From a bacterium (GTDB taxonomy: Bacteria > Patescibacteriota > Dojkabacteria > SC72), in assembly GCA_017958745.1 (NCBI GenBank), contig JAGDCC010000034.1, positions 1 to 51,716 on the forward strand: DNA of 51,716 bases, in the 5' to 3' direction. The translations under genes and the position numbers were made by a program. Shown here piece by piece: positions 2,914 to 45,792 of the stretch (position 1 is its first letter; each line of letters opens with the position of its first letter). The notes under the pieces are model-generated. The model searched no databases. It was not told the origin of the DNA and saw nothing but the letters and a program-made list of their open reading frames with translations.

Positions 2914-3693
2914 TTAGCTTTTTCTTTCTGCGTAAACAACCAACCTTTTTGTTCCTATACCGAGAGGCCAGCAGGTCATCATTGTTATACTTTCTTTATT
3001 TGCATTTTGGTCTAATACAGAAAAATCATCTGCTTCTACGATTTTCTTTGTTCTCACTACATACTTTAGTGTAGAACCATCTTTTTCTATCTCTACGATA
3101 TCTCCTATTTCTATATTGCTTAATTTGGAAAATATTGTTTCTGGATAATTTTTGTGGGAGGAGAAGAAAGACTCTACTGCGCTATGCCCATATAAGAATG
3201 AGTTTCCTCCATCTCCTGGTATTGGTGTTCCCTTAAAGTGAGCAATTCCTTTCTTTAGATAGCTGTTGTAGACGTCTGCATTGGTACTTTCTACATTTGG
3301 AGTTATTAATATGTGATTTATTTCTATAGAAGATATTGTTATGTACATTGGCTTACTGTAACTTGTGTCTATTACGTAGTGTTTTGCACTTCCTTTTGAG
3401 GAAGATGAGGCGCCTAATACTAGCTCATGTGCAAGGTTCTCGAAGTAATTTTTACCTGGGTCGTAGAATGCAAACTCATTTTCTATGTATGTTTTGTATT
3501 CCTCTGATACCGGATTTACCTTTACATCTTCTCTTGTTTGTGTGATTACCCCATCTATATATGATTTAAGTAGTGGTATAGATTGGCTTGCAATTATTAT
3601 TAGTCCAGAAACAGCAAGTACAACGGATATTATTGTTTTGGTTCTTTTAAGCTTTGTTTCGTTTTCTATCTGGATATTCCACTTACTTTTCAT
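2914..3693 (-). CDS. Sortase-family transpeptidase
   Basis: N-terminal TM anchor, catalytic His context SFLYGHS, catalytic Cys context ITMMTCWP (TLxTC-type) and a downstream Arg (KRLVVYAER). Confidence 0.8.
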   Translation of the reverse strand: MKSKWNIQIENETKLKRTKTIISVVLAVSGLIIIASQSIPLLKSYIDGVITQTREDVKVNPVSEEYKTYIENEFAFYDPGKNYFENLAHELVLGASSSSKGSAKHYVIDTSYSKPMYITISSIEINHILITPNVESTNADVYNSYLKKGIAHFKGTPIPGDGGNSFLYGHSAVESFFSSHKNYPETIFSKLSNIEIGDIVEIEKDGSTLKYVVRTKKIVEADDFSVLDQNANKESITMMTCWPLGIGTKRLVVYAERKS

Positions 3694-7879: not shown

Positions 7880-8658
7880 TCATTTCTCTTGTAGTATTTG
7901 TTATTAATATTATTGTAATAAGGTCTTCCTCTAAATAGACAAAAAGCATCTAGTTCTAATTCTCTATCTGGATATGTATCCCTAATACATCTAGAAATCT
8001 CTTCTAAAGTACTACCAGTCGTAATAACATCGTCTACAACAATTATCTTTTTGTAACCAGAAATATAAAAATCCTCGTTAATAACAAATCTCCTATTTTT
8101 AGTAAGCTCCAATCTATCTGCTTTATCCAGTAATGCATTGTGTCTGTCTGTATTATCTATATTAACGATAAAATCATCTGTATAAATAGCATCTAAATAT
8201 TTAGCAACAATCTCTGCAATACATTTCGTTTGGTTAAAACCTCTCTGTGTAAGCCTTTTCTTAGAAATAGGAACAGAAATAACAAGAATCTCTTTAGACT
8301 CTCTAACATCTTTTTGCACATAAAGAAAATCTTTAATAACAGTACCAATTAAATAATTAAACATAGATGAAATATCATATTCTCCCTTAAACTTGTATCT
8401 CTTCAAAAATGGAGACGAAAGCTTATTATATTGCCATCCAACGAAAACAGAATTATAAGAATAACAATCTCTACAATGATTATGAGTGAGATAATGCTTA
8501 CTAATTCTTCTACATTTGTAACATTCTGGAAGATTTCTCCATAAAAGCTTCTGACATAAATTACACAAATAAGAACCATATCTACTACAGATACAACAAC
8601 TTTTTGGAAAGAAAAAGTCTAGGATACTAATCATATAGGGAAGATTATATCTATCCAA
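7876..8658 (-). CDS. comF: ComF-family protein (phosphoribosyltransferase domain with N-terminal Cys-rich zinc finger)
   Basis: N-terminal CCICSRYGSYLCNLC...CYKCRR and the PRTase motif IIVVDDVITTGSTLEE. An alternative start is M9 (MISILDFFFPKSC). Confidence 0.8.
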   Translation of the reverse strand: MDRYNLPYMISILDFFFPKSCCICSRYGSYLCNLCQKLLWRNLPECYKCRRISKHYLTHNHCRDCYSYNSVFVGWQYNKLSSPFLKRYKFKGEYDISSMFNYLIGTVIKDFLYVQKDVRESKEILVISVPISKKRLTQRGFNQTKCIAEIVAKYLDAIYTDDFIVNIDNTDRHNALLDKADRLELTKNRRFVINEDFYISGYKKIIVVDDVITTGSTLEEISRCIRDTYPDRELELDAFCLFRGRPYYNNINNKYYKRND

Positions 8659-8722: not shown

Positions 8723-10273
8723 TTGATGAATATTAAAAACTACCTAATTCCTACAAAACAAAATGGATATAAACCATACCTATTGAGAAAAATTGCTGTT
8801 GTAGCTTATTGTTTTGTTCTTGTCTTTGTAAATACACTAGGTGGAATTATAGAGGCAAAAGAGGTAGAAGCAAGTGATATTACTCCTGAAAAATTAATAG
8901 AGTTAACCAATAAGGAAAGGAGAATGTATGGTCTAAATGAATTGACATATAGTGCGGAGTTATCCTCTGCTGCATTAGCCAAAGCAAATAACATGCTTTC
9001 TCTACAGTATTGGGATCACTATGGACCAAATGGAGAAACACCTTGGCAGTTTATAAGAGGTGCGGGATATGACTATATTTATGCTGGGGAGAACTTGGCA
9101 AAAGGTTTTTCTACATCCGAGGGAGTTGTAGAGGCATGGATGGCAAGTCCATCTCATAAAGCCAATATTGTTAGTGCGAATTATAAGGAGATAGGAATTG
9201 CAGCCGTGAGAGGTGAGCTTCTTGGTAGGCAGACAATTCTTGTTGTACAAATGTTTGGAAATAGGGCTGTGAATGTACAAGGAGCAGAGGAAAACAACAA
9301 TAATAACAATAGTACCCCTGTTGTTGTAGAACCAAACAACACTCCTGAACCATCTCAAAATCCTGCACCAACAACGACAACACCCGTACAAGCACCTACA
9401 CAAACTCCAGTACAAACTCCTGTTCAGACACCTACACAACCACAAACATCTACACAAACGCCTACGCAGACTCCAGTGCAAACTCCTGAACAAACTCCTG
9501 TTGTAAAAGAGAAGGGAGAGATAAAGAGTATTATGATTACAAATCCAGTTCCAAAGACCGTTGTAACAAGTCCGTCTCAAAGTATTGAAGGAAAAATAGA
9601 ATCTACTTTAGATGAAAATTCTTATATTGTTGATGTTTATGAAGGAGCTAATGCAATTGGTTCTGTTAGTTCAGATTCCTTAGAATGGGAGTTTAGTAAA
9701 AATAGTGATTGGTCTGAAGGAAGCCATAACATTAAAGTAAACATAAACGGTACAGAATTATCCGATGAAACGACATTTATTTTAGATTCTACTGCTCCAA
9801 TGGTAGAGTTAAGTACTGTAGCAGTAAGAGATTTAGGAGATAAACTGAAGTTATCTTTTTCTGTTACAGAAGAGCCAGAAAAAGCTATATTGATTGCAGG
9901 TTCTAATACATACAATCTAGATATAGATGATTTAGATTTATCTATAGAGTTAGTTAAAGAGAATGTCGCAAATAAATCTGTAAAAGTAGAACTTGTAGAT
10001 GCTTATGGAAATTCATCTCAAACAGATATCTCAGAATATTTCCTATTGGGAGAGGAAGAAGCTCCTGCATTTTCTATTGCTTCTTTAGGTGTTGCAAAAA
10101 CAATTAGTATTGTAATTGTATTATCTATTGCAATCTTGTTATGTATAGAAATTGTTTACCTCATAAAATACGGTATGTTTAAGAGAGCAGTGCAAGATAT
10201 TCTTACGGTTGGTGTCCTTTGGATAATTCTGGCTATTGCAATATTTACTGGATATTCTGGTTCTATTATATAG
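8723..10273 (+). CDS. CAP/SCP (PR-1/YkwD-like) domain surface protein with Pro/Thr/Gln linker, Ig-like region and C-terminal TM segments
   Basis: LTNKERRMYGLNELTYSAELSSAALAKANNM...GENLAKGFSTSEGVVEAWMASPSHKANIVSANYKEIGIA matches the CAP-domain pattern. A (TPVQ/TPTQ)n linker follows. The likely real start is ATG 8726. Confidence 0.75.
   Translation: MMNIKNYLIPTKQNGYKPYLLRKIAVVAYCFVLVFVNTLGGIIEAKEVEASDITPEKLIELTNKERRMYGLNELTYSAELSSAALAKANNMLSLQYWDHYGPNGETPWQFIRGAGYDYIYAGENLAKGFSTSEGVVEAWMASPSHKANIVSANYKEIGIAAVRGELLGRQTILVVQMFGNRAVNVQGAEENNNNNNSTPVVVEPNNTPEPSQNPAPTTTTPVQAPTQTPVQTPVQTPTQPQTSTQTPTQTPVQTPEQTPVVKEKGEIKSIMITNPVPKTVVTSPSQSIEGKIESTLDENSYIVDVYEGANAIGSVSSDSLEWEFSKNSDWSEGSHNIKVNINGTELSDETTFILDSTAPMVELSTVAVRDLGDKLKLSFSVTEEPEKAILIAGSNTYNLDIDDLDLSIELVKENVANKSVKVELVDAYGNSSQTDISEYFLLGEEEAPAFSIASLGVAKTISIVIVLSIAILLCIEIVYLIKYGMFKRAVQDILTVGVLWIILAIAIFTGYSGSII
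9364..9503 (+). repeat. Low-complexity coding repeat (Thr-Pro-Val/Thr-Gln)n linker
   Basis: Translates to APTTTTPVQAPTQTPVQTPVQTPTQPQTSTQTPTQTPVQTPEQTPV, made of imperfect 12-nt units (acaaactccagt / acaaactcctgt ...). Confidence 0.8.
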
Positions 10274-12457: not shown

Positions 12458-12470
12458 ATGGTATTGTTAT

Positions 12471-12542
12471 GCCGCTATCGTCTAACGGTTAGGACATAGG
12501 ATTCTCAATCCTACAATTGGAGTTCGATTCTCCATAGCGGTA
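12471..12542 (+). tRNA. tRNA-Glu (anticodon CUC)
   Basis: Hand-folded cloverleaf: acceptor GCCGCTA/TAGCGGT (G1-U72 wobble), U8, D-arm GTCT-AACGGTTA-GGAC, anticodon arm TAGGA-TTCTCAA-TCCTA, variable loop CAAT, T-arm TGGAG-TTCGATT-CTCCA, discriminator A. No CCA is encoded. Confidence 0.85.
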
Positions 12543-12551
12543 TTTGGTTAA

Positions 12552-12622
12552 TGCTGGATCGTCTAATGGTAGGACGGTGGTCTCTGGAACCACTAATTCT
12601 AGTTCGAATCTAGGTCCAGCAA
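12552..12622 (+). tRNA. tRNA-Gln (anticodon CUG)
   Basis: Acceptor TGCTGGA/TCCAGCA (U1-A72, as in bacterial tRNA-Gln), anticodon arm GTGGT-CTCTGGA-ACCAC, T-arm TCTAG-TTCGAAT-CTAGG. It lies 9 nt after tRNA-Glu and no CCA is encoded. Confidence 0.85.
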
Positions 12623-14227
12623 TTTCATATCATTTCTAATACTGTTTATACCTTTCATCCAAAACTCTTTCTTAGTAATATCTATGCCAATACTGTTAAA
12701 TAAATCTCTAGGAGATTTGGTACTACCACTACTTAAGAACATCTTAACCTTTTCTACATTCTTCTTATCTTCCTTTACTAATTCCAATAAAGACTTGGCA
12801 ATAAGCAGACCACTAGCATAGGAATAAACATAGAAATATCTTCTAAAATGACCAACATAAATCCATCCGAGTTTCATAGCAGTATCCGTGTCTACAGCAT
12901 CTCCAAGGTATGCATTCATATGTTTAGCAAATAGATTACAAATATAATCCTTATCTAAGAATCCTTTTTCTCTATAATCCTTATGTAAATCTTTCTCAAA
13001 ATTATAAAATGCAATCTGTCTAAATATTGTAGAAATATCTCTGTTTAGTTTTTGGTTATATAAAGAAATCTTTTCCTCTTGGGAGGCCATAGAAATAATG
13101 TCATCCAAAACATACCCTTCAAAGAAAGTACTAGCAATCTCTGCAAGAGAAATAGGGTAATCGCAGTTTAGTTCTGACTGAGACTTAGACAGCTCTGTAT
13201 GTATTCCGTGACCACTCTCATGAGCGATTGTAAGTACATCATCTACAGTATTGGTATGGTTTAGGAGAATGTATGTAGGTAGATTCTTACCAACGCTTAC
13301 ACAGAATGCACCTCCATATTTTCCTTGTTTAGGAAATACATCATACTGTCCGTTGTCATAGAATGATTTCACAATGTTATAAAACTCTTCATCCAATTTG
13401 CGGAAGGATTCTTCCACTAGTTGTTGTGCATTATCATAAGTGTATTCTTTGTTTACATCTTCTGCTATTGGAACGTTTCTTTCATGATATCCAAGAGTTT
13501 TTTGTCCAAGCATTTTTGCTTTATATTTATAATATTGCTGAGAAATATCAAAATTGTCTGTAACTGCAGATACTAGAGAATCTACAATTTCTGGTTCTAT
13601 ATCGTCTGATACCAATGTAGCTAATTCTGGCTTGGCATAATTTCTAACTTTATCTCTTGACTTCTTATGCTCCAATACTGAGTTCATCTCGTATTCTGCA
13701 ATCTCTAGGTATTTCTCATTTACTTTGTTAAATTGAGAAGATGCATAGTTTCTTACATCTTTCTTTTTGCTATCCAAATATTTACTTATCTCGTTATAGG
13801 ATATGTCTACTTCTTTTCCATCCTCATTCTTAACTGTCGTTTTTTGCTTATCTAGTAAGGTAGATAGCATTTCTACCCAATTCTCATAGGATGTGTTGTA
13901 TGTTATGTTAAGTATCTTTTCTTCCTTGTCTGACAATACATATTTTCCACTTGCAAATGATGTTTCTAACATGTGGTGGTATTTTTGTAATAAAGGGGAA
14001 TCTAGGAATATCTTTTGCTTTTCTTCTGGTATCTTGGAAATACTTAAGCTAAAGAATTGAATATTATTTTCTAAATCTGTTGTTATATCGTCTAGCTTAT
14101 TTATTCTTGCTTTTATATCAGTATTTGTTTGGTCTAAGTAGAAGAGTAGAGAATAGTAATAAGACGGTTTTGTGCATAGCCCGTAATTTTGCATTAAGTT
14201 CTCGTAATCTGTGAGTGCTTCAAGCAT
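12599..14227 (-). CDS. pepF: Oligoendopeptidase F (M3B zinc metallopeptidase); the reading frame continues upstream to ATG 14374 but is interrupted by an in-frame TAA at 14290..14288
   Basis: Zincin site TIAHESGHGIH and overall M3B-like layout. The 28 codons upstream of the TAA (MQNTWNLELLYKDLEDPQIKEDIQKSIE) plus the following NKKFVEKWKNNKGYLEKPEI look like a normal PepF N-terminus. Confidence 0.85.
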   Translation of the reverse strand: MLEALTDYENLMQNYGLCTKPSYYYSLLFYLDQTNTDIKARINKLDDITTDLENNIQFFSLSISKIPEEKQKIFLDSPLLQKYHHMLETSFASGKYVLSDKEEKILNITYNTSYENWVEMLSTLLDKQKTTVKNEDGKEVDISYNEISKYLDSKKKDVRNYASSQFNKVNEKYLEIAEYEMNSVLEHKKSRDKVRNYAKPELATLVSDDIEPEIVDSLVSAVTDNFDISQQYYKYKAKMLGQKTLGYHERNVPIAEDVNKEYTYDNAQQLVEESFRKLDEEFYNIVKSFYDNGQYDVFPKQGKYGGAFCVSVGKNLPTYILLNHTNTVDDVLTIAHESGHGIHTELSKSQSELNCDYPISLAEIASTFFEGYVLDDIISMASQEEKISLYNQKLNRDISTIFRQIAFYNFEKDLHKDYREKGFLDKDYICNLFAKHMNAYLGDAVDTDTAMKLGWIYVGHFRRYFYVYSYASGLLIAKSLLELVKEDKKNVEKVKMFLSSGSTKSPRDLFNSIGIDITKKEFWMKGINSIRNDMKLLDLDSN

Positions 14228-17876: not shown

Positions 17877-18821
17877 ATGTCTAGAAGGAGTAAAAGAAAA
17901 AATTCCAAGAAGAGAGAAGAGATAGAAGAAGAGGTTATAGAAGAGGAGGCTATTGATGAGGTTAGTGAGGAAGAGGAGGAAGTAGATGATAGTGTAGAAG
18001 AAGAGATAGAAGAGGAGGATGAAAAGAAAGAAGATGATGCTGAGGAGGAAGAAGAAGAGGAGAAGGAAAGTGATGTGAAGGAGATAACAATAGATATGAG
18101 TACATGGGGTATTCCTATTGCGATTATTATTGCAGGCATTATTATCGCATTAGCTGTGTATTTCTCTAATAAATCTAGAACGGATACATCTAGTACATAC
18201 AATAATTCTGGTACACAAACAGTAGATAATAACAATAATGATAGTGGAAATAAGGATAATGGTTCTTTATCCATTAATATAGATGGAGATCCATATCTTG
18301 GAACTCTTGAGAATGGAAAAGTTGCAATGGTGGAGTTTACAGATCCATTCTGTGGATATTGCAAGAGATTTCATACACAAACATTTGATAGTATAAAGAA
18401 GGATTATATTGATACAGGTAAAATAATTTATGTATACAAGGAGTTCCCATTGACAAATGATAAGGAATCTCTTAGATATCATTTGGTAGAAGGTGGTGAG
18501 TGTGTTTACCGTCTTACAAACAATACAGAAGCATTTGTTAAGTTCCATGGAGGTGCTTTTGATGTAGAGTCTGAGGATGGAATGAGAACATTAGCTGAAT
18601 CTACAGGTGTAGATATGACAGCATTTAATGAATGTATCAGTAATCATACATACGCTTCTGAAGTTTCTAAAGATTCTGAAGAGGGTCAGAATCTTGGTAT
18701 TTCTGGTACACCGTCTTTCTTGATTGGAAAGGTAGATGCTAATGGAAAGATTACAGGAACAGTAACTGTTGGTGCTTTATCTTATTCCTCTTTCCAAAGT
18801 AAGTTGGATGCGCTATTATAA
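17877..18821 (+). CDS. Membrane-anchored DsbA-like thiol:disulfide oxidoreductase with a strongly acidic N-terminal tail
   Basis: About 70 N-terminal residues are mostly Glu/Asp, followed by a TM helix (GIPIAIIIAGIIIALAVYF) and the thioredoxin-fold active site FTDPFCGYCKRFH. Confidence 0.8.
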   Translation: MSRRSKRKNSKKREEIEEEVIEEEAIDEVSEEEEEVDDSVEEEIEEEDEKKEDDAEEEEEEEKESDVKEITIDMSTWGIPIAIIIAGIIIALAVYFSNKSRTDTSSTYNNSGTQTVDNNNNDSGNKDNGSLSINIDGDPYLGTLENGKVAMVEFTDPFCGYCKRFHTQTFDSIKKDYIDTGKIIYVYKEFPLTNDKESLRYHLVEGGECVYRLTNNTEAFVKFHGGAFDVESEDGMRTLAESTGVDMTAFNECISNHTYASEVSKDSEEGQNLGISGTPSFLIGKVDANGKITGTVTVGALSYSSFQSKLDALL

Positions 18822-36788: not shown

Positions 36789-39700
36789 ATGCAATGGCCT
36801 AATAAAATTAGCAAAAAGGAGTTCTTATTATTGTTCTCTGTATTATTGATTTTTCCAGTTTTTATTTTCTATGCTTTTTTTTCTAAATCTTTTGTGACTA
36901 GTACTAAAGCAGACTCTACACAGAGTTTACCTGCGTCTATTTCTTTTGCTGATTTAAACTCTGACTCAAGAATTAGTATATCTGACTTTACTATTTGGTT
37001 AGGATATTATTCTCAATTTGCAAAATATGATAAATATAATGCTGATGGAGATTTTAATGATGATAGAAGGATATCTATTTCTGATTTTAGATTATGGTTA
37101 GATGCATATCTCTCATATGCGAAAGGCACGTATACGCAATTTGGACCTGGAGATGATACGACAAATCTGTGTGAATCTGGAGATACTTTAACAAGATGCT
37201 TAGTATATGCAGATACTGGAACAAGAGATTATAGTACAGCTATTACTACAATAAAGAATAAAGCTGCAAGAGACTTTTCTACTGTAGCAACAACAGATGA
37301 GGGATTACATGCTACACCAGATTATTCTAGTGTAAGTGCAACAACATTAGATGGAACAAGTTATTATTTCAGAGGAGCAGTAGAAGATAACTGGGTAAGT
37401 TTTGCAGGGTTCTTGTGGAGAGTTGTAAGGATAAATGGCGATGGAAGTATAAGGTTGGTTTACAGTGGAACAACAAATAACCATACTGGAGCAGGTGTAC
37501 AAATCGGAGTATCCGAATATAATGAGAGTAATGAGAATTCAACGGGGGCTGGTTATACGTATGGTGATAATACAGATAGTACAATAAAAAGTGTTGTTGA
37601 CTCTTGGTATGAGAATAATATAAGAAATAATTATGAAAAATATTTAGCGAATGAAATCTTTTGTAATGATAGGAGTATCGGAGAGACGGATGAAGACTTA
37701 ATATATTATGGAGCTTTCACAAGGTTTGTTTCTAACAATGCTACTCCAAGTTTGCAGTGTGTTAATAAGGCTGATATGTATACATTAGGTACATCTGGTT
37801 CGGGTAATGTCTCTGGAATTGATGGTGCCGGTAATAATAAATTAAAATATCCTGTAGGATTATTAAGTGTTGATGAGATTTCTTTTGGTGGTTGTGCGTT
37901 TACTGATGATAAGGCAAACTCTTATCTTTGTCCTGGAAACGATTATTGGCTTATCTCACCATTGGCATTGAGTTCTAGTGGTGTTCCTGTTATGTACATT
38001 GCAAGTGATGGTTATATTAGTGTAGCGCTATTGGAAGAAGAACTTGGTGTACGTCCAGTAATAAACCTTAAATCAGATGTTTTGTATTCTAGTGGTAATG
38101 GGACAGTGAATAATCCATATGAAATACAAGATGGCATGCATAATATTACGACGCCAATTATTACGTTGAGTTCTACAGAAGGAACAGTTGGTATAGGTAG
38201 TACCATAACATTCATAGCTACTGTCTCTAGTGGTGTAGAGGATAGTATTTCTGGTACATTAACAGTAAGTAGTAGTGATACAACGATGGCAAGTGTAGAT
38301 TCAACAATTAAGAATGTAACAGCAACTCCAAATGGGGCAGAATCTACTATAACAATAACAGGTATATCAGAGGGAGTTAGTACAATAACTGTTGGTTTTA
38401 GTCCTACGGATATTACACATTATGCAGATGCAATAGGTAAAACATATACTGTAACTGTTGAATCTGGAGTGAGTGAGCAAATGGCAACAATTCCAACAGC
38501 AACAGATTATTGTCACACAGGATTAGTGTATACAGGTAGTAGTCAAACATTAACTAAAACAGAAGGCGAAGGTTATATATTTAGTGATAATGAAGGCACA
38601 GATGCAGGAAATTATACTGTAACAGCAACATTGGAAGATGGTTACATATGGAATGACAATTCTACAGAAGCTAAAACTGTTATATGTAGTATTGAAAAAT
38701 ATGCTCCAACCATAACCTTAAGCGCTGAAGAGGAAACATTAGAATTAGGTAATACAACAACATTTACAGCTGTTGTAGTATCGAGTGTGTCGTCTGGTAC
38801 TGCAGGTGATTTAGTAGTAGAAAGTGGAGATTCCACAATCGCAACAGTTAATCCAACTAATGCTAGTATTACAGCAACTCCAAGTGGTATTGATACTGTG
38901 GTAACAGTAACTGGTGTGTCAGAAGGAGTTAGTACAATAACAGTTGGTTTTACTCCAACAGATACGACCAATAACACCAATGCAACAAGTAAAACATATA
39001 CTGTAACTATTGGCACTGCAGTAGGTGAGCAGATAGCAACAATTCCAACAGCAACGGATTATTGTCAAACGGGATTAGTTTATACAGGTAGTAGTCAAAC
39101 ATTAACTAAAACAGAAGGAGTTGGTTATACATTTAGCAATAATGAAGGCACGGATGCAGGGGATTATACTGTATCTGCGACATTAGAAGAGGGTTATGTA
39201 TGGACGGATAGTAGTACGGAAGAGAAGACATTTATTTGTAGTATAGATAAAGTGACTCCAACAATAACATTAAGTTCCGATGAAGGAACTGTTGAAGAAG
39301 GTAATGAGATAACATTTGTTGCTACTGTAACATCTGGTGGCGTATCTGAACTAGCAGGAACATTATCTGTCGAGAGTGGAGATACTAGTATTGCAACGGT
39401 AGATCCAACGAGTAAAGATATTACAGCAATAGTAAGTGGAACATCTACAACTATAGCAATAACTGGATTGGTAGCAGGTAGCAGTACAATTACAATTAAA
39501 TTTACTCCAGACAGCATTACAAACTACAATAGTCCAGAGAGTAAGACATTTGATGTAGATGTAACAGAAAGTACACCTCAAGAACTTCAGACTCCAACGA
39601 TTACTTTAAGTTCGACAGAAGGAACAGTAGAATTGGGAAATACTGCTTCATTTACAGCTACAGTATCTTCTGGAGGAACATCTAATATAGAAGGAACATT

Positions 39701-40943
39701 AACGGTAAGCAGTGGAGATACAAATAAGGCAACTGTATCTCCAGAGAGTACTGCTGTAACAGCTATACAGTCTGGTGTTGCAACAACTATAACAGTAGCG
39801 GGAGTAGCAGTAGGTAGTAGTACAATAACAGTGAGTTTTGTACCAACAGACACAACCAACTTTAATAGTGCAGATAATAAAACATATACAGTAACAGTAA
39901 ATGCGGCAGCTTCTGTTCCAACTTTGGCAGAGAAAATTATTATGGATGACCAAGGAGCATCTAGTTATAGTGGTTCTCTATTAACAGCAATACGTAATAA
40001 AACTGCTAGAGATTTTTCTACAACAGCAACTACAGATGAGGGATTGCATGCAACAGCAGACTATGCAAGTCCGAATGCGACATCTTTAAATGGATATAGT
40101 TATTATTTTAGAGGTGCTGTAACGGACAACTGGGTGAGTTTTGCAGGATTCCTATGGAGAATAATAAGAATAAATGGAGATGGAAGCATAAGAATGATTT
40201 ATAGCGGAACGACAAGTAACCATACAGGAGCAAATACACAAATAGGAACTTCTATGTTTAAGTCAGATATAGAGGAAGAAGATAGTAAGGAAAAGTTTGT
40301 AGGTTATATGTTTAAGACTACTTCTGACAATGATACAGATAGTACTATTAAAACTGTAATTGACACTTGGTATGAGAACAATTTATTAACTAATTATGAA
40401 GCTTATCTAAGTGATTCTGGATTCTGTGGAGATAGAACAGTAGAACACACAATAAATTCTGACGAAGTCGTTATCCCAACTGATACTCATATAATCAATT
40501 ATTACGGAGGATTTAATAGAACAATTCTTAACTCTACACCAACATTAAAATGTTCTAATTTATCTAGAGATATGTATACATTAAAAATATCAGGTGAAAG
40601 CAGTATAGCTGGAACAAGTGGTTATGGAAATAATGCTTTAAAGTACCCAATTGGTCTATTAACAGCTGATGAGGTTGCATTTGCTGGAGGGCATCCAACA
40701 GAAAATAATAGTAATTATTATCTGTATAATGGACAAATTGATTGGTTAATTTCTCCAGGGGCCTATGATGAATACTACAATGTATCGGATAATATGGATG
40801 TAAATATCAAAGGAATAATTAGTGGTTTTAATGTAGATTTAGGAGAATATGGTGTGAGACCAGTTATAAATCTAAAATCTAATGTTAAGTACGGTAGTGG
40901 GAGTGGAACAGAAAATGATCCATATGTTGTACAATTACTATAA
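36789..40943 (+). CDS. 1384-aa secreted multidomain surface protein: leader + dockerin-like module + unknown ~300-aa domain (copy 1) + 4 Ig-like repeats with 2 interleaved beta-domains + unknown domain (copy 2)
   Basis: Leader MQWPNKISKKEFLLLFSVLLIFPVFIFY...SFVTSTKA. Dockerin-like loops DLNSDSRISISD and DFNDDRRISISD (36951..37109). The duplicated domain is marked by YYFRGAVEDNWVSFAGFLWRVVRINGDGSIRLVYSG / YYFRGAVTDNWVSFAGFLWRIIRINGDGSIRMIYSG and GVRPVINLKS. Confidence 0.85.
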   Translation: MQWPNKISKKEFLLLFSVLLIFPVFIFYAFFSKSFVTSTKADSTQSLPASISFADLNSDSRISISDFTIWLGYYSQFAKYDKYNADGDFNDDRRISISDFRLWLDAYLSYAKGTYTQFGPGDDTTNLCESGDTLTRCLVYADTGTRDYSTAITTIKNKAARDFSTVATTDEGLHATPDYSSVSATTLDGTSYYFRGAVEDNWVSFAGFLWRVVRINGDGSIRLVYSGTTNNHTGAGVQIGVSEYNESNENSTGAGYTYGDNTDSTIKSVVDSWYENNIRNNYEKYLANEIFCNDRSIGETDEDLIYYGAFTRFVSNNATPSLQCVNKADMYTLGTSGSGNVSGIDGAGNNKLKYPVGLLSVDEISFGGCAFTDDKANSYLCPGNDYWLISPLALSSSGVPVMYIASDGYISVALLEEELGVRPVINLKSDVLYSSGNGTVNNPYEIQDGMHNITTPIITLSSTEGTVGIGSTITFIATVSSGVEDSISGTLTVSSSDTTMASVDSTIKNVTATPNGAESTITITGISEGVSTITVGFSPTDITHYADAIGKTYTVTVESGVSEQMATIPTATDYCHTGLVYTGSSQTLTKTEGEGYIFSDNEGTDAGNYTVTATLEDGYIWNDNSTEAKTVICSIEKYAPTITLSAEEETLELGNTTTFTAVVVSSVSSGTAGDLVVESGDSTIATVNPTNASITATPSGIDTVVTVTGVSEGVSTITVGFTPTDTTNNTNATSKTYTVTIGTAVGEQIATIPTATDYCQTGLVYTGSSQTLTKTEGVGYTFSNNEGTDAGDYTVSATLEEGYVWTDSSTEEKTFICSIDKVTPTITLSSDEGTVEEGNEITFVATVTSGGVSELAGTLSVESGDTSIATVDPTSKDITAIVSGTSTTIAITGLVAGSSTITIKFTPDSITNYNSPESKTFDVDVTESTPQELQTPTITLSSTEGTVELGNTASFTATVSSGGTSNIEGTLTVSSGDTNKATVSPESTAVTAIQSGVATTITVAGVAVGSSTITVSFVPTDTTNFNSADNKTYTVTVNAAASVPTLAEKIIMDDQGASSYSGSLLTAIRNKTARDFSTTATTDEGLHATADYASPNATSLNGYSYYFRGAVTDNWVSFAGFLWRIIRINGDGSIRMIYSGTTSNHTGANTQIGTSMFKSDIEEEDSKEKFVGYMFKTTSDNDTDSTIKTVIDTWYENNLLTNYEAYLSDSGFCGDRTVEHTINSDEVVIPTDTHIINYYGGFNRTILNSTPTLKCSNLSRDMYTLKISGESSIAGTSGYGNNALKYPIGLLTADEVAFAGGHPTENNSNYYLYNGQIDWLISPGAYDEYYNVSDNMDVNIKGIISGFNVDLGEYGVRPVINLKSNVKYGSGSGTENDPYVVQLL
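38151..39926 (+). repeat. Intragenic tandem repeats: 2 x 552 bp followed by 2 x 336 bp units
   Basis: Unit starts (PxITLSS codon CCA) are at 38154, 38706, 39258 and 39594. Units 1 and 2 also contain an ~80-aa ATIPTATDYC(H/Q)TGLVYTGSSQTLTKTEG...GTDAG(N/D)YTV module. Identical runs reach 38 nt (tatacaggtagtagtcaaacattaactaaaacagaagg). Confidence 0.85.
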
Positions 40944-41015: not shown

Positions 41016-43199
41016 ATGAAATGGACAAATAAAATAAGTAAAAGCGATTTTATATTACTAGCTTCTGTGCTATTAATTCTTCCTGCTATTGTTTTCTATA
41101 CGGTAAATTCTGATTCTTTTGAGACAAGAAGCCAAGCAGAAACAACAGAGACTTTGCTAGATAGTATATCATTTGCTGATTTAAATGATGATAATCAAAT
41201 TAGCATAACAGATTATGCTATTTGGGTAGAATATTATGTTGATTTTGCTAAAAATGGGAAGTTGAATTCCTCATGTGATTTTAATGGTGATGGTAGAATA
41301 TCTATTGCTGATTTTAGCAAATGGTTGGAAGCATATATCTCATATGTGAGAGGGTCATATATAGTATCTAAGAGAGAGAATCCTGTCGTTGTTAAATTAA
41401 ATCCTAATTATTCTGAAAATGATACTGCCTTGGTTGTTGTAGAAGATGCTAAAGGAGAAGTTTATTTTAGTATAGATACAGAATTAACAGCTCTCAATTA
41501 TGAAACAGCTGGATCTACAGTCATTCCAACTGGCAATGGAAAAGGAGGCTATAGAGTATATTGGTATTGTACTGGGAATGATAACTATTATTCTAAGAGG
41601 GGAGAAGTAGTTTTAGAGGAGGAACATATTAAGCCAGAGGTGAGTGCTGGTTCCATTAAAAAGGATAATGAAGTAACTTTAGTTGAAAATAAGTGTGGTA
41701 GTTGTATGCATGACACATATCCTGAAGATCACGCAATAGAGCCAGAGATACCGTCATCGCAATTGCTTACTGCTAGTTGTCCATCTGTATGTCAGACTGT
41801 ATATGATGCAGCGTATAGTACATCAACATTTGGTAACAAAAAGATTACAAGGGATAAAATTGAAAAAATATATACAGTTAAAGAGGTAGATGTTCCAGCA
41901 GATGCTAAAGAATCATGGGATGTTTCAGAGAAAAAAGACAAGTCTGTTGTTGCGTATGTCTTAGATAAAGATTCGAATGGCTTGTATGAGCTCTATCTAG
42001 GGGAGAATGGAGGAGTTATTGCTAACCAAGACAGTAGTCGAATGTTTGAAAATTATACATCTTTAACATATGCAGATTTAACAAATCTTTATACAGACAA
42101 TGTTACTGATATGAGCTTTATGTTCAAGGGTGATAATAAATTAAGCCAGTTGATTATTAATGGGTGGAATACAACGGCTGTTACAAATATGAAGTATATG
42201 TTTAAGGATTGTTCTTCTCTTTCATCTTTAGACCTGAATCATTTTGATACTTCCTCTGTAACAGATATGGAAGGTATGTTTTATGGTTGTATATCCATGA
42301 AATCTTTAGAAGTGGAAAAATTTAATCTTACAAATGTTAAGACAATAGAGGCAATGTTTATGAATTGCAATAAGCTTTCCAAATTAAACATTGAAAACTG
42401 GAACACAGCAAATATATCAAAAATTAGCAAGTTGTTTGCTAATTGTAAATCTCTAACTAGTATTTCCATAGGGAAATGGGATACATCACGTGTAGATGAT
42501 ATGTCTGCATTGTTTTATGGTTGTAAGTCATTATCGAATATAGATATCGGAAGTTGGGATGTATCGAATGTAACAGATATGTCTGGTTTATTCTTTGATT
42601 GCTCTTCTGTGAAATCATTGTCATTAAGTAAGTGGAATGTAGGTAATGTTAAATGGCTTTCTTACATGTTTTATGGATGTAAGTTGTTAACAGAGATAAA
42701 AATAAATAATTGGGATGTTAAAAACGTCGTAAATATGAATGGACTATTTAAAGGTTGTAAGGCTCTAGAAACTATTTCACTAAATAAATGGAAGACATCT
42801 AGTGTATCTGGGTATGGTATGGATAGTGTTTTTGAGAATTGTGAATCGTTGACGACACTGGATTTGAGTAACTGGAATACTTCTAACGTAGAAAGTATGA
42901 GTAAAGTATTTCGTGGTTGTAGTTCATTAACGACATTAAATATTTCTGGTTGGAATACTGCCAAAGTACTGGTTATGGAAGATATGTTTTATGGATGTGC
43001 ATCTTTGAAAACTATTTATGCGAGTAATTCTTTTGTCACAAAAGGACTCTTCTCTGATTTAGATTTAGAAGAAAATATGTTTAAAGGTTGTAAGAGTTTA
43101 GTTGGAGGTAATGGAACCAAGTATTCTTCCTCCCACATGGGCAAAGAATATGCAAGGATAGATACAGCTTCTAAGCCTGGATATTTCACAAGTAAGTAA
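41016..43199 (+). CDS. Secreted BspA-type leucine-rich-repeat surface protein (26-residue repeat / DUF285-like) with N-terminal dockerin-like module
   Basis: The leader is colinear with the 36789 protein (A41 and D55 at identical positions). Dockerin-like loops DLNDDNQISITD and DFNGDGRISIAD (41178..41336). About 11 repeats of W(N/D)TSxVTxMxxMFxGCxSLxxLxLxx follow. The C-terminal end FKGCKSLVGGNGTKYSS...ARIDTASKPGYFT is typical of this family. Confidence 0.85.
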   Translation: MKWTNKISKSDFILLASVLLILPAIVFYTVNSDSFETRSQAETTETLLDSISFADLNDDNQISITDYAIWVEYYVDFAKNGKLNSSCDFNGDGRISIADFSKWLEAYISYVRGSYIVSKRENPVVVKLNPNYSENDTALVVVEDAKGEVYFSIDTELTALNYETAGSTVIPTGNGKGGYRVYWYCTGNDNYYSKRGEVVLEEEHIKPEVSAGSIKKDNEVTLVENKCGSCMHDTYPEDHAIEPEIPSSQLLTASCPSVCQTVYDAAYSTSTFGNKKITRDKIEKIYTVKEVDVPADAKESWDVSEKKDKSVVAYVLDKDSNGLYELYLGENGGVIANQDSSRMFENYTSLTYADLTNLYTDNVTDMSFMFKGDNKLSQLIINGWNTTAVTNMKYMFKDCSSLSSLDLNHFDTSSVTDMEGMFYGCISMKSLEVEKFNLTNVKTIEAMFMNCNKLSKLNIENWNTANISKISKLFANCKSLTSISIGKWDTSRVDDMSALFYGCKSLSNIDIGSWDVSNVTDMSGLFFDCSSVKSLSLSKWNVGNVKWLSYMFYGCKLLTEIKINNWDVKNVVNMNGLFKGCKALETISLNKWKTSSVSGYGMDSVFENCESLTTLDLSNWNTSNVESMSKVFRGCSSLTTLNISGWNTAKVLVMEDMFYGCASLKTIYASNSFVTKGLFSDLDLEENMFKGCKSLVGGNGTKYSSSHMGKEYARIDTASKPGYFTSK
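42045..43020 (+). repeat. Coding tandem array of about 11 x 78-nt (26-residue) LRR units
   Basis: I hand-counted the units (for example WDTSRVDDMSALFYGCKSLSNIDIGS and WDVSNVTDMSGLFFDCSSVKSLSLSK). One unit is 28 aa. Confidence 0.8.
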
Positions 43200-43231: not shown

Positions 43232-43864
43232 CTAATGTCTTTTCTTTCTAGTGGGAATTATTGCGACTATAACGGTAGCTAATCCTATAATACTTGCAAC
43301 AATCAGTAATGTGTATATTTGATGTTCTATAAGAAAGTTCTTAACTCTATCTAGAAAACTTTTATTCTCTGTTTGGTTTGCTTTGGCAATTGAAATGCCT
43401 TCGTCGTGAATAGTTTCAGAACGAACAATATTCACTGGCTTATTTATGTCACTAATTGCGTACTCTAAATTACCAATATCTAAGGATTCTGTATCAATAT
43501 AGAAATAATAATCATCAAATCCATTATTAACATAATTGATTGTTGCAAATGTTCCAGATGCACTTGTGTTGTCATCGTTGAAGCATTCTATGGAGATAGT
43601 ATTGTTATTAACTTTAATATCTTCACCAACTTGACACATATTTTCAGCAATAACGATATCATCTTCGGTTATTTCTAAATTCTCAGAGTAATGTATCTTA
43701 ATATCTATAGCTGGAAGATAAACGTTAGTATCGCTATCTACAATAAGATCTACAGTATTATTTTCATTCTCGATAAGCATTATATCTGTTGCAGCAAGCA
43801 AATAGTTCTTGGAAAGAAACAATAATGATAAGGTGAATAATAATATAATCCTCTTTGATTTCAT
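43232..43864 (-). CDS. Membrane-anchored cohesin-like domain protein (putative dockerin receptor)
   Basis: Signal peptide MKSKRIILLFTLSLLFLSKNYLLAA, then a ~140-aa beta-rich domain. Its landmarks LPAIDIKIHYSENLEITEDDIV and SGTFATINYV parallel cohesin segments I recall (IANCDFVYSYDPNVLEIIEI, GVFATIVAKV). The C-terminal TM helix ends in RKKRH. Confidence 0.5.
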   Translation of the reverse strand: MKSKRIILLFTLSLLFLSKNYLLAATDIMLIENENNTVDLIVDSDTNVYLPAIDIKIHYSENLEITEDDIVIAENMCQVGEDIKVNNNTISIECFNDDNTSASGTFATINYVNNGFDDYYFYIDTESLDIGNLEYAISDINKPVNIVRSETIHDEGISIAKANQTENKSFLDRVKNFLIEHQIYTLLIVASIIGLATVIVAIIPTRKKRH

Positions 43865-43971
43865 GATTACAGAAACTCATTTTATACTTCTTTTATAAAA
43901 ATAGCAGATTAAATTGATTATTTCCACAATTAAAGGTATTCTTTTATAGGATTAATTGATGGTTAAATCAC

Positions 43972-45792
43972 ATGGTATCTTTTAGCTTAGGAAAGAAGAA
44001 AAGAGCTTTTATAGCAGTGTTTGCATTTATGCTTTTGACTCCATTAATTATTTTCTACAGTACTTCTGATAACAACTTTGATACTAGAAGTAGTGCAGCT
44101 AATTCTGATTCTTTACCTAAAAATCTTAAATCTGCAGATTTAAATGCAGATGGGAAAGTTACAATTTTGGATTACAACATCCTGCTTGAAGCTTATCGTA
44201 ATTTTGTATCGAAGTCTGTATATTCTAAATCTTATGATTTTAATAACGATGGAAAAATTAACTATCTAGATATTGCAGAATGGCAGAACAAGTATGAGAA
44301 GTATAAACTTTGGCTCGCTAACCAAAATATTGAAGAGGTTGCTATTACATACCAGGGGGAAGAAGTAAGCAAGTTGGTATTAAAGAAAAAAAGTGCACAA
44401 TTGGGAACTACTTTTACGAATGGTGAAAAAGTAACATGGTCAAGTAGAAATCCTTTTGCCATTACAGTCGATAATAACGGTAAAATACAACTTGTTGGAG
44501 AACCTGGAGAGAAAGCTACTATAGATGCAGTAAGTAGTTCTGGTGCAGAAGCTAGTGTTTTAGTTGTTATAGATGGAGAACCCTCTGGAGCTGTTACGTA
44601 TGGAGGAAAAGTTTTTGATGGTACTGTTAGAAATATTAGCTTGGAAGAAGGATTTTCTGCACAACTTGGAACAACATTTAGTAATTGCAGTAATTTGACA
44701 TGGACGAGTAGAAATTTGTCTGTAGTTACTATTGATAATAAGGGTAAATTATCAGTAAAAGGGGAGGAAGGTAGATATACCTATGTTTATGCAACATGTG
44801 ATTCAAATAGAACACCACAGGTAAGAATTAATGTTACTAAGAAGACTGATTCAAACGGTCTTACTCTTAATAAGACATCTGGTACTATTTATTTGAATTC
44901 TTCTAATCCTAAAGTTTTCTTAAAAGCTACAACTACAAATGGAAAGGAGATTACATGGTCTAGTAGTAATACTAATGTCGCAACTGTAAATAAAAATGGG
45001 AAGGTAACGGCGAAAGCAGTTGGAACAAGTAAAATTATTGCAAAAGCAGGAGATTTAACTGCTACTTATGATCTTACAGTTAAACAAAAAATTATTATTA
45101 TTGTTGGTGCTTCTCAGGTTGGTAGAATGAAAAAGAATGTTTCAAGTTATGAATCTGGTAATTACTTATATCAGAAAAGCGATAATACTTTGAAGATAAT
45201 TGCAGAAGGAGGTACTGGATTTGCTTATCAACTACCTGGTGGTGCTGGTTTTGATTCTATGTATTTATTCATGACTGGTTATTCATCTGTCAAAAAGTAT
45301 ATTGAGTTTTATGTTTATTTCCCTATCGCTGGAAATGGTGTTACACGTTATACTTGTAAAAAATTGACAAACTCGAATAGTGACATTAGCGGTTATATGG
45401 AGAATTATAGCTCTACTATGGCATCCTTAGCGAAAGAATCTTACCAGGTTAAGACATATCTTGTTAGTATCCAACCTGTGGCTCCAGAACAATGTACAGA
45501 TGCTGAATGTACAGCTGTTGAGAGTAATGATCCTAATGCTTGCAAATCTGGTTATAGATCTAATATCAAATATTATACTTATAATAAGCTTATGGAAGAA
45601 TTCCTGAAGAACTACAATAATCTAACATATGTTGAAACATTTAAGAAAATAATGAATGTTAATGAATCTACTAATGAGTTTACTTATAAGAAGGGTGTTA
45701 AATATGTAACTGACCAACATGGTATTCATTGGGATGAGAAAACAACCGTCTATTATGTAGGCTTAATGCTGGAATCTAACACAGAGTTATAA
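43972..45792 (+). CDS. Secreted protein: leader + dockerin-like module + three Big_2-type Ig domains + unknown C-terminal (possibly SGNH-like) domain
   Basis: Leader ends ...PLIIFYSTSDNNFDTRSSA. Dockerin-like loops DLNADGKVTILD and DFNNDGKINYLD (44137..44295). Big_2 signatures VTWSSRNPFAITVDNNGKIQL, LTWTSRNLSVVTIDNKGKLSV and ITWSSSNTNVATVNKNGKVTAKAVGTSKIIA. Confidence 0.85.
   Translation: MVSFSLGKKKRAFIAVFAFMLLTPLIIFYSTSDNNFDTRSSAANSDSLPKNLKSADLNADGKVTILDYNILLEAYRNFVSKSVYSKSYDFNNDGKINYLDIAEWQNKYEKYKLWLANQNIEEVAITYQGEEVSKLVLKKKSAQLGTTFTNGEKVTWSSRNPFAITVDNNGKIQLVGEPGEKATIDAVSSSGAEASVLVVIDGEPSGAVTYGGKVFDGTVRNISLEEGFSAQLGTTFSNCSNLTWTSRNLSVVTIDNKGKLSVKGEEGRYTYVYATCDSNRTPQVRINVTKKTDSNGLTLNKTSGTIYLNSSNPKVFLKATTTNGKEITWSSSNTNVATVNKNGKVTAKAVGTSKIIAKAGDLTATYDLTVKQKIIIIVGASQVGRMKKNVSSYESGNYLYQKSDNTLKIIAEGGTGFAYQLPGGAGFDSMYLFMTGYSSVKKYIEFYVYFPIAGNGVTRYTCKKLTNSNSDISGYMENYSSTMASLAKESYQVKTYLVSIQPVAPEQCTDAECTAVESNDPNACKSGYRSNIKYYTYNKLMEEFLKNYNNLTYVETFKKIMNVNESTNEFTYKKGVKYVTDQHGIHWDEKTTVYYVGLMLESNTEL

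Follow-up and report, generated by a model that had tools for sequence, protein, structure and literature searches.

How can adhesin-like proteins that carry no anchor of their own be retained on the cell? The question is raised by a gene cluster on contig JAGDCC010000034.1 (here called the window, the whole stretch of 51,716 nucleotides that was analyzed), in which three genes for dockerin-bearing, adhesin-like proteins are accompanied on the opposite strand by a gene for a protein of 210 amino acids (43232..43864, − strand). The product of this gene is probably a minimal anchoring scaffoldin with a single cohesin and a transmembrane anchor, holding dockerin-led adhesins at the cell surface; we infer that it binds dockerins, that the leader of its partners is cleaved and that these partners act in adhesion. 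An earlier note, made from the sequence alone, had proposed such a minimal scaffoldin, and the proposal is supported by the predicted cohesin fold, by a topology that places the domain outside the cell and by the dockerin-bearing neighbors.

The open reading frame (ORF) runs from an ATG start to a TAG stop and contains every string that the earlier note had quoted from it (MKSKRIILLFTLSLLFLSKNYLLAA, TVDLIVDSDTNVYLPAIDIKIHYSENLEITEDDIV, NTSASGTFATINYVNNG, IYTLLIVASIIGLATVIVAII, and PTRKKRH). An identical product is recorded at NCBI as MBP5204456.1 (locus tag J6Z48_02330, "hypothetical protein"), and in every source searched the members of its family bore no name beyond "hypothetical protein." The gene overlaps neither neighbor: 32 bp lie between its stop and the stop of the gene at 41016..43199 (+ strand), and 107 bp separate its start from that of the divergent gene at 43972..45792 (+ strand). 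Thus, its description as antisense within the adhesin locus holds with regard to the strand, but the gene occupies a slot of its own and is not antisense in the overlapping sense.

A word-based search returned only 3 relatives of the protein, at 99, 63, and 57% identity, and HMMER, run exhaustively over 1.84 billion representatives, placed 54 cluster representatives in the family, 40 of them with E ≤ 1e-10. Most members are about 200 amino acids long and share the end-to-end layout of the 210-residue protein. In a 43-sequence alignment, A24, L30, S44, S60, C77, C94, N96, Y111, Y119, F121, Y122, D129, G131, and N141 are near-invariant. The dN/dS ratios of 0.11 against the orthologue in locus L001 and 0.18 against that in locus L002 (orthologues with 57% to 63% identity; synonymous sites saturated) indicate that the gene is under purifying selection.

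A predicted cohesin fold outside current profiles

The assignment of the domain to the cohesins is carried by structure prediction. AlphaFold2 (AF2), run on 43 homologues, produced 5 concordant models with a mean predicted local distance difference test (pLDDT) score of 85 to 87, rising to 92 to 98 over the domain (residues 25 to 145; 43430..43792, − strand), which is predicted to form a beta-sandwich of about 120 amino acids with 9 strands and contains the near-invariant C77 and C94. When this model was compared with PDB structures using Foldseek, the top 27 matches were cohesins without exception (types I, II, and III; probability 1.00), so that the structure-level match anticipated in the earlier note was indeed obtained. 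The best match was the cohesin of Archaeoglobus fulgidus (2xdh; E 1e-5, template modeling score [TM-score] 0.61, target-normalized), with target-normalized TM-scores of 0.58 to 0.62 to the small cohesins 2xdh, 2jh2, and 2vn6. The other top matches included cohesins of Clostridium cellulolyticum (2vn6/1g1k), Ruminococcus flavefaciens ScaE (4iu2/8ajy/9gvb), C. perfringens (2jh2), and C. thermocellum (2ccl), whereas non-cohesin beta-sandwiches (pilins, CNA, and CLIPPER) ranked only below the cohesins. With an alignment of merely 4 sequences, 1 of 5 AF2 models was confident, and its top 16 PDB fold matches were again all cohesins. The domain is only 12% to 17% identical to characterized cohesins. 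On the strength of the models, we predict a cohesin fold belonging to a sequence family outside current hidden Markov models (HMMs).

At the sequence level, the signal to cohesins is weak but appears specific. The 3 best matches of the family profile among PDB sequences were R. flavefaciens ScaB cohesins (E 0.05 to 0.33), and the top 4 matches of a domain-only profile were all cohesins (5m2o, 5aoz, 5m2s, and 2xdh; E 0.06 to 0.42), each of these matches being sub-threshold. The strand landmarks that had been likened to those of cohesins fall in the right register in 2 alignments, both statistically weak: the region TVDLIVDS...IDIKIHYSENLEI aligned to the ScaB cohesins, and in an hhalign comparison SGTFATINYV aligned with DGVFATIVAK of CipA. 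Searches of PDB sequences by phmmer and hmmsearch with a 4-sequence profile yielded nothing useful. An NCBIfam scan of the 210-residue protein gave no cohesin match, and Pfam and NCBIfam scans of this protein and the 43 members pointed to no consistent family; single matches to DUF2577 and Avl9 were dismissed as weak, sub-threshold and not common to the members.

Topology, membrane anchor and a sortase-anchored sibling family

By the −3/−1 and positive-inside rules, the 210-residue protein is predicted to be a type I membrane protein, its domain lying outside and its tail in the cytoplasm. Its signal peptide (residues 1 to 24; 43793..43864, − strand) comprises the n-region MKSKR and the hydrophobic core IILLFTLSLLFL, with a hydropathy peak at residues 6 to 24; cleavage by signal peptidase after the near-invariant A24 (LLA↓A) is probable, and the family consensus AYA↓x obeys the −3/−1 rule. 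Between the domain and the membrane lies a linker of about 37 residues (146 to 182; 43319..43429, − strand), in which, according to the AF2 model and the family alignment, an acidic disordered stretch (pLDDT <50 at residues 150 to 165) precedes a conserved juxtamembrane helix (residues 170 to 180) with an FLxxNxxY motif. The transmembrane helix (residues 183 to 203, IYTLLIVASIIGLATVIVAII; 43256..43318, − strand) is, besides the signal peptide, the sole strongly hydrophobic segment of the protein, with a 19-residue Kyte–Doolittle mean of up to 2.83; it coincides with an AF2 helix at residues 182 to 202 and is conserved throughout the family. It is followed by the basic tail PTRKKRH (residues 204 to 210, together with the TAG stop at 43232..43255, − strand), which has a charge of +4. 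The order of parts given in the earlier note (signal peptide, domain, linker, transmembrane helix, and tail) is borne out, but the domain measures ~120 rather than ~140 residues and the linker ~37 rather than ~45. The domain was likewise expected to lie outside, and the N-terminal signal peptide, the single C-terminal transmembrane segment, the +4 tail and the acidic character of the intervening region (31 D/E against 8 K/R) all agree with this.

Another gene of the window (17877..18821, + strand) encodes a DsbA/thioredoxin-like protein, the N-terminal region of which is long and, being rich in E and D, highly acidic; the gene suggests extracytoplasmic disulfide formation. The 2 near-invariant cysteines, taken together with this gene, would fit an extracytoplasmic location of the domain. 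The DsbA-like protein itself matched the family HMM weakly, but the match arises from the acidic low-complexity N-terminus, and the protein was rejected as a paralogue.

Thus, the 210-residue protein combines the features of an anchoring scaffoldin, a cohesin-fold domain and an envelope anchor, the anchor being a transmembrane helix and neither an S-layer homology (SLH) module nor a sortase signal. As had been noticed, a hydrophobic segment and a basic tail are present without a preceding LPxTG, and an LPXTG-like motif is found in none of the 43 aligned family members, the 210-residue protein included. About 10 family members are longer (380 to 460 amino acids; P0044-P0055, L097:254-1429, and L095:406-1653) and continue, after signal peptide, cohesin and transmembrane helix, into a Pro/Thr/Glu-rich low-complexity cytoplasmic tail of about 190 residues. 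P0051 (1,093 amino acids) matches only locally and has GBD_T9SS_assoc and PPC domains; its architecture is probably unrelated.

A sibling family, not represented in the window, carries a homologous cohesin-like domain on a sortase signal. Its members, of ~200 to 255 amino acids, consist of a signal peptide, the domain, an LPATG, LPESG, LPETG, or LPDSG motif, a hydrophobic segment and a basic tail. They were found on the − strand at L092:437-1033, L093:4977-5579, L090:9131-9898, L091:151-852, L087:9075-9755, and L086:1-522, and a further probable member, probably also of the LPxTG type, at L096:9189-9863 (− strand). In L086, L087, and L090 to L093, and probably in L096, the sibling gene is divergently paired with a gene of the transmembrane type. 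An hhalign comparison relates the 2 families to each other (probability 94%, E 9e-8), which means that the same small module occurs on 2 anchors, a transmembrane helix and a sortase signal. The sole Pfam match of one sibling member was Cohesin (E 0.006, 17.1 bits against a cut-off of 24.1; profile positions 12 to 124 of 139); the sibling profile had no PDB or CipA match. The existence of 2 anchor forms supports an anchoring role and indicates that the transmembrane helix of the window protein is a real anchor and not a decayed sorting signal.

A sortase gene is present in the window itself (2914..3693, − strand; Pfam Sortase, with class C as the best NCBIfam match, under the subfamily cut-off). 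Elsewhere in the same metagenome-assembled genome (MAG), locus L083 encodes a canonical sortase substrate of 572 amino acids (6449-8167, − strand), with DLPSTG, a hydrophobic segment and a basic tail, in this order, at its C-terminus, directly downstream of a paralogous dockerin–Big_2 gene.

Dockerins at the N-terminus of adhesin-like neighbors

The 3 putative cargo proteins share a leader and an N-terminal dockerin and differ in what follows. Cargo 1 (606 amino acids; 43972..45792, + strand), encoded divergently from the cohesin gene, has the leader (…LLTPLIIFY…FDTRSSA), a dockerin at residues ~50 to 114 (nucleotides 44119-44313; Pfam Dockerin_1, 38.7 bits against a cut-off of 22.9; local dockerin HMM, E 4e-29), 3 Ig-like domains of the Big_2 family and a C-terminal domain. 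The latter, comprising the ~240 residues past Big_2 (45073-45789), had no Pfam, NCBIfam or PDB sequence match and might be the functional tip, either binding or enzymatic. Cargo 2 (727 amino acids; 41016..43199, + strand) has the same type of leader, a dockerin at residues ~49 to 112 (nucleotides 41160-41351; Dockerin_1, 27.6 bits against the same cut-off of 22.9; local HMM, E 3e-30) and C-terminal DUF285/PARCEL repeats of the BspA-type leucine-rich repeat (LRR) class (DUF285, E 8e-123; LRR_5; TIGR02167 PARCEL repeat). In cargo 3 (1,384 amino acids; 36789..40943, + strand), a leader of this type and a dockerin at residues ~50 to 112 (nucleotides 36936-37124) precede DUF6273 and Ig-like regions (Pfam Big_3_5). 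The dockerin of cargo 3 is recognizable from two 12-residue calcium-loop motifs at residues 55 and 88, from the local HMM (E 2e-29) and from 60% identity to the dockerin of cargo 2. None of the 3 cargo proteins has a C-terminal anchor.

Type I dockerins (PF00404) are defined by a match to the family HMM and by two repeats of ~22 residues, each with a 12-residue calcium loop (D/N/S at positions 1, 3, 5, 9, and 12). The dockerins of the window have 2 repeats with loops of the form D-x-N-x-D-x-x-I-S-x-x-D, as in DLNDDNQISITD and DFNGDGRISIAD, and belong to this type, the third by virtue of its identity to that of cargo 2 and of the local HMM.

The leader consists of a K/R-rich start, a hydrophobic helix with the motif (T/A)P(L/I)I(V/I)(F/L)Y and the sequence F(D/E)(T/L)RSxA, located ~10 residues before the first calcium loop; small residues (S/T-x-A) occupy positions −3 and −1 in all leaders. 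In the window, it covers the N-termini of cargo 3, cargo 2, and cargo 1 (36789-36950, 41016-41175, and 43972-44135, respectively, all + strand). A regular expression for the leader matched 13 distinct dockerin proteins (in the window and in L001, L002, L083, L087, L090, L091, and L096), and elsewhere in the ~1.6 Mb of loci it matched just 2 short ORFs, which have no preceding hydrophobic helix. In most cargo proteins the dockerin is found at the C-terminus or close to it, N-terminal ones being known but uncommon. By contrast, the dockerin directly follows the leader, at residues ~50 to 130, in all 13 distinct partners.

Linkage of the cohesin and dockerin genes across loci

The association seen in the window recurs widely. 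In 10 of the 11 flanked loci (the window, L001, L002, L083, L087, L090 to L093, and L096), which lie in different genomic backbones (BipA, RadC/TopA, and MurB), the distance from a family member to a gene with leader and dockerin is at most ~2 kb; the co-occurrence with N-terminal dockerin proteins that the earlier note suggested looking for in related genomes is therefore present. In L001, the family gene (63% identity of the product) is inserted on the opposite strand between the Big_2–dockerin and DUF285–dockerin genes, with 4 dockerin genes in a row, and the divergent pair of cohesin and dockerin–Big_2 genes is also present in L002. More distant members in L087, L090, L091, L092/L093, and L096 occupy further contexts, each with a leader–dockerin gene within ~2 kb. 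Of the 4 pairs that share the divergent arrangement with a dockerin–Big_2 gene (the window, L001, L002, and L083), the intergenic region in the window (43865..43971, 107 bp) presumably holds the promoters of both genes; one block of it is conserved between the window and L001.

The earlier note had also suggested a search for paralogues, of which the same MAG contains P0004 (J6Z48_01175) and P0043 (J6Z48_03175). The former, 38% identical to the window protein, occurs within another backbone (S2/EF-Ts ... RadC/TopA), where it is likewise divergent from a leader–dockerin–Big_2 gene. The latter (L094:10001-10708), the third paralogue of the MAG, is divergent from a gene for a protein of 2,857 amino acids with no Pfam domain and no N-terminal dockerin (L094:1285-9858, − strand). 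Further along L094, there are several unannotated secreted or transmembrane proteins and a VWA protein.

Dockerins of this kind are rare in comparable loci that lack the family. Among 80 BipA-anchored loci of the Candidate Phyla Radiation (CPR) without the family (1.27 Mb), the dockerin HMM matched 1 of 1,497 ORFs, whereas every one of the 12 dockerin genes of the 20-kb loci lies no farther than ~7 kb from the cohesin gene; the 3 dockerin genes of the window are likewise within 7 kb. As the family was absent from all 80 of these loci, the BipA neighborhood is not its conserved home. Four loci were obtained by scanning metagenomes with a 10-sequence sub-alignment, and a scan of GTDB genomes with a 4-sequence alignment, whose patterns were too narrow, found no relatives.

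Comparison of cassettes indicates which parts are preserved. The window cassette and its paralogue in the same genome share 44.7% identity in the cohesin domain and 44.6% in the dockerin, against only 27% in the rest of the cargo; relative to the L001 orthologue, the values are 68.9% for the cohesin, 61.5% for the dockerin and 68.4% for the cargo body. These 2 comparisons would fit a cohesin–dockerin pair that is kept together while the cargo varies.

Proposed function and alternative explanations

In the mechanism that we propose, the 210-residue protein would be exported by the Sec system and cut by signal peptidase after A24, so that the cohesin of ~120 residues would stay outside, near the membrane, on its ~37-residue linker and transmembrane helix, with the PTRKKRH tail remaining in the cytoplasm. 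The adhesin-like cargo, devoid of a C-terminal anchor, would be exported as well, carrying the leader and the two-repeat calcium-binding dockerin at its N-terminus, and the dockerin would plug into the tethered cohesin. This interaction would depend on Ca2+, as is established for the binding of cohesin–dockerin pairs. The N-terminus of the adhesin would thereby become the point of a non-covalent attachment, and its LRR or Ig-like C-terminal regions would point outward. Considering the episymbiotic lifestyle of CPR bacteria, the target of adhesion is plausibly a host cell or a substrate.

Several observations weigh against this reading. The Pfam Cohesin profile (PF00963) matched none of the 43 members and not the 210-residue protein either, even at E ≤ 1, and the hhalign comparison with a CipA-type cohesin profile gave a non-significant probability of 0.2% (a weak negative, the profile being narrow, with 7 close sequences). 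The latter profile was seeded with a sequence of CipA Coh2, validated by 100% and 97% identity to PF00963 proteins. Owing to these 2 negatives, membership among the cohesins depends, at the sequence level, on the sub-threshold matches described above. Moreover, binding of the cohesin to the neighboring dockerins is suggested only by gene linkage, and the paralogue in L094 has no adjacent dockerin gene. The dockerin of cargo 1 is only 32% to 35% identical to the other 2 dockerins of the window, and hence one cohesin may not bind all three; the local cohesin may serve only this divergent partner, with the other 2 dockerins being served by paralogues elsewhere in the genome. A scan for promoter and terminator consensus sequences gave no excess over shuffled sequences. 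Finally, the ~12 residues between the hydrophobic core of the cargo leader and the S-x-A site are unusually many, and the leader might be retained as an N-terminal anchor.

A retained leader is the starting point of the first alternative, in which the leader is an uncleaved signal-anchor and the cohesin is an organizer within the same membrane, clustering, orienting or stabilizing the adhesins in cis or coupling them inward through its tail. We regard this as unlikely, even though the leader, strongly conserved and confined to dockerin proteins, has a c-region of a length uncommon among Sec signals, and the long Pro/Thr-rich cytoplasmic tails of the ~400-residue family members would be in keeping with inward coupling. 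The dimensions also fit, since a dockerin ~10 residues past the S-x-A site and a cohesin on a linker of ~37 residues would both be positioned near the membrane. However, the S/T-x-A residues at −3/−1 in every leader suit signal peptidase I, and the sibling cohesin, sortase-anchored and wall-linked, argues for an anchoring job, as the scaffoldin reading has it.

The second alternative concerns the ligand. A module with the cohesin fold could bind something else, such as a host surface, a glycan or another protein, in which case the clustering of genes would reflect a general island of surface proteins. The reliance on linkage for dockerin binding, the low identity to characterized cohesins, the pilin, CNA, and CLIPPER adhesin domains lower in the list of fold matches and the L094 paralogue with no dockerin neighbor are all compatible with it. 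Nevertheless, we consider it quite improbable, because leader–dockerin genes adjoin the family in 10 of 11 loci with unrelated backbones and dockerins of this kind are hardly ever found elsewhere, the cohesin keeps pace with the dockerin in conservation while the remaining cargo sequence diverges, and all top fold matches are cohesins.

The remaining 2 explanations concern the anchor and the gene itself. The C-terminus does look like the end of a sorting signal, and a sortase is encoded in the window, so the protein could be a cryptic sortase substrate, linked to peptidoglycan through a non-canonical signal. This was rejected, and is very improbable, given that an LPXTG-like motif occurs in 0 of 43 members while a canonical LPSTG is in use elsewhere in the MAG (L083). 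In addition, the sibling family has clear LPxTG/LPxSG motifs, a contrast that looks deliberate, and the long-tailed members place ~190 residues beyond the transmembrane helix, which is incompatible with a sorting signal. Lastly, the idea that 43232-43864 is a spurious opposite-strand ORF of the adhesin locus with no protein product, to which the AT-rich region and the lack of an obvious Shine–Dalgarno sequence, promoter or terminator might point, is almost certainly wrong and was rejected on the conservation data (dN/dS of 0.11 to 0.18 with saturated synonymous sites, and 54 homologous clusters that keep motifs and architecture), the gene moreover overlapping no neighbor and encoding a product with a confident predicted fold.

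Relation to known systems

The principle and the architecture of the proposed scaffoldin are known, whereas the phylum and the sequence family are new. The closest counterparts in layout are single cohesins with a predicted C-terminal transmembrane segment in Firmicutes, namely, WP_216523161.1 and WP_216522914.1 of Lachnoclostridium sp. MSJ-17 and the "nonSLH-anchoring scaffoldins" of H. luporum and C. cibarium (PMC11557425), as well as transmembrane-anchored single cohesins predicted in Ruminococcus sp. HUN007, JE7B6, zg921, and zg924 (bioRxiv 10.64898/2026.02.05.704116). The same 2026 preprint reports that many Ruminococcus cohesins escape HMMs (bioRxiv 10.64898/2026.02.05.704116). Like the window protein, these Firmicutes proteins have a signal peptide, one cohesin and a C-terminal transmembrane segment, and their proposed role is to fasten dockerin-bearing proteins to the lipid bilayer, with several being detectable by AlphaFold only. 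Unlike it, they come from Clostridia and are associated with cellulosomal or amylosomal enzymes, mostly with C-terminal dockerins, whereas the window cohesin comes from a CPR bacterium and a sequence family of its own and has as putative cargo adhesin-like proteins whose dockerins are N-terminal and follow a dedicated leader; both are predictions.

Among structurally characterized cohesins, R. flavefaciens ScaE (type III; PDB 4iu2, 4iu3, 2zf9, 8ajy, and 9gvb; fold match with E 4e-5 to 8e-5) is likewise a single-cohesin anchoring scaffoldin of a rumen organism, attaching the remainder of its system to the cell envelope. It differs in its covalent LPXTG link to the wall, in the type III alpha-helix and beta-flaps and in its size of ~200 residues, compared with a compact cohesin of ~120 residues on a transmembrane helix. 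With its sortase-anchored cohesin-like module, the sibling family is the better match to ScaE. The non-cellulosomal cohesin of A. fulgidus (2xdh), both the best fold match and a top sequence-profile match, is also a small cohesin of a non-cellulolytic organism, but it is archaeal and 15% identical, and the protein that it belongs to also carries a dockerin and has no transmembrane anchor. In C. thermocellum, OlpA, OlpC, and SdbA each combine one cohesin with an envelope anchor and dock dockerin proteins at the surface. Cohesins of this group (e.g., PDB 4dh2 and 2bm3) are among the fold matches and share this plan with the window protein; they differ in the SLH anchor, in the cellulosomal enzymes or scaffoldins that they carry and in being detectable with Pfam.

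Highly reduced systems have been described as well. ClcC and ClcD of Cellulosilyticum lentocellum, a one-cohesin and one-dockerin pair encoded by adjacent genes, form a complex that was shown experimentally (PMC13487519). The window system resembles this pair in its reduction and gene adjacency, but ClcC/ClcD is centered on enzymes (cellulase enhancement), comes from Firmicutes and is not described as transmembrane-anchored. Non-cellulosomal cohesin–dockerin pairs occur in many bacteria and archaea (PMC9012536), and a rumen survey with dbCAN found cohesins in Firmicutes_A genomes only. In the literature on cohesins or dockerins in connection with Dojkabacteria, WS6, CPR or Patescibacteria, we found no description of such a system. 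The system is unusual in that its dockerins are N-terminal and follow a leader specific to them, that its cargo is adhesin-like and that transmembrane and LPxTG forms occur in pairs.

More tentatively, Dojkabacteria and related CPR bacteria might possess a lineage-specific cohesin–dockerin system, invisible to HMMs, for the display of swappable adhesins and not for enzyme assembly. It would have 2 anchor forms and a composite N-terminal "leader-FDTRSxA-dockerin" module, and its cassettes would duplicate and diverge together, giving rise to separate specificities. If this were true, it would be a main means by which these ultra-small episymbionts attach to host cells or particles, with a specificity that can change without a change of the anchor. 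Host attachment in CPR/Patescibacteria is mostly ascribed to type IV pili, and many of their large surface proteins are unannotated. A cohesin–dockerin socket would account for the retention on the cell of adhesin-like proteins that themselves lack an anchor and would give a function to "hypothetical proteins" of ~54 clusters and of the sortase-anchored sibling family. It would also extend the HMM-escaping cohesins to a distant phylum, whose genomes would be scored as "dockerin without cohesin" in surveys that count PF00963. The pair is small and testable, with a cohesin of 120 residues and dockerins of 65.

Host and other genes of the window

The window contains housekeeping genes for DnaJ, NusA, IF-2, ProRS, PheST, MurF, MraZ, RsmH, FtsI, MraY, a class A penicillin-binding protein, and BipA, and has a GC content of 30% to 37%. 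Its BipA is up to 81% identical to that of Candidatus Dojkabacteria MAGs, and the closest homologues bear the study codes WILK20 and XIEF21, which we take to be ruminant gut datasets. The window is therefore assigned to a Candidatus Dojkabacteria MAG, and the host is a CPR/Patescibacteria bacterium, probably from the rumen, with a peptidoglycan wall and sortase. Apart from the genes considered above, a protein of 516 amino acids (8723-10273, + strand) with an N-terminal CAP (cysteine-rich secretory protein/SCP) domain and a hydrophobic C-terminal region is a possible surface or secreted factor. Adjacent genes for tRNA-Glu(CTC) and tRNA-Gln(CTG) are located at 12470-12622 (+ strand); the end of the tRNA-Gln gene overlaps the end of an M3 peptidase ORF (12599-14227, − strand) by ~24 nucleotides, so the stop or start context of this ORF may differ.

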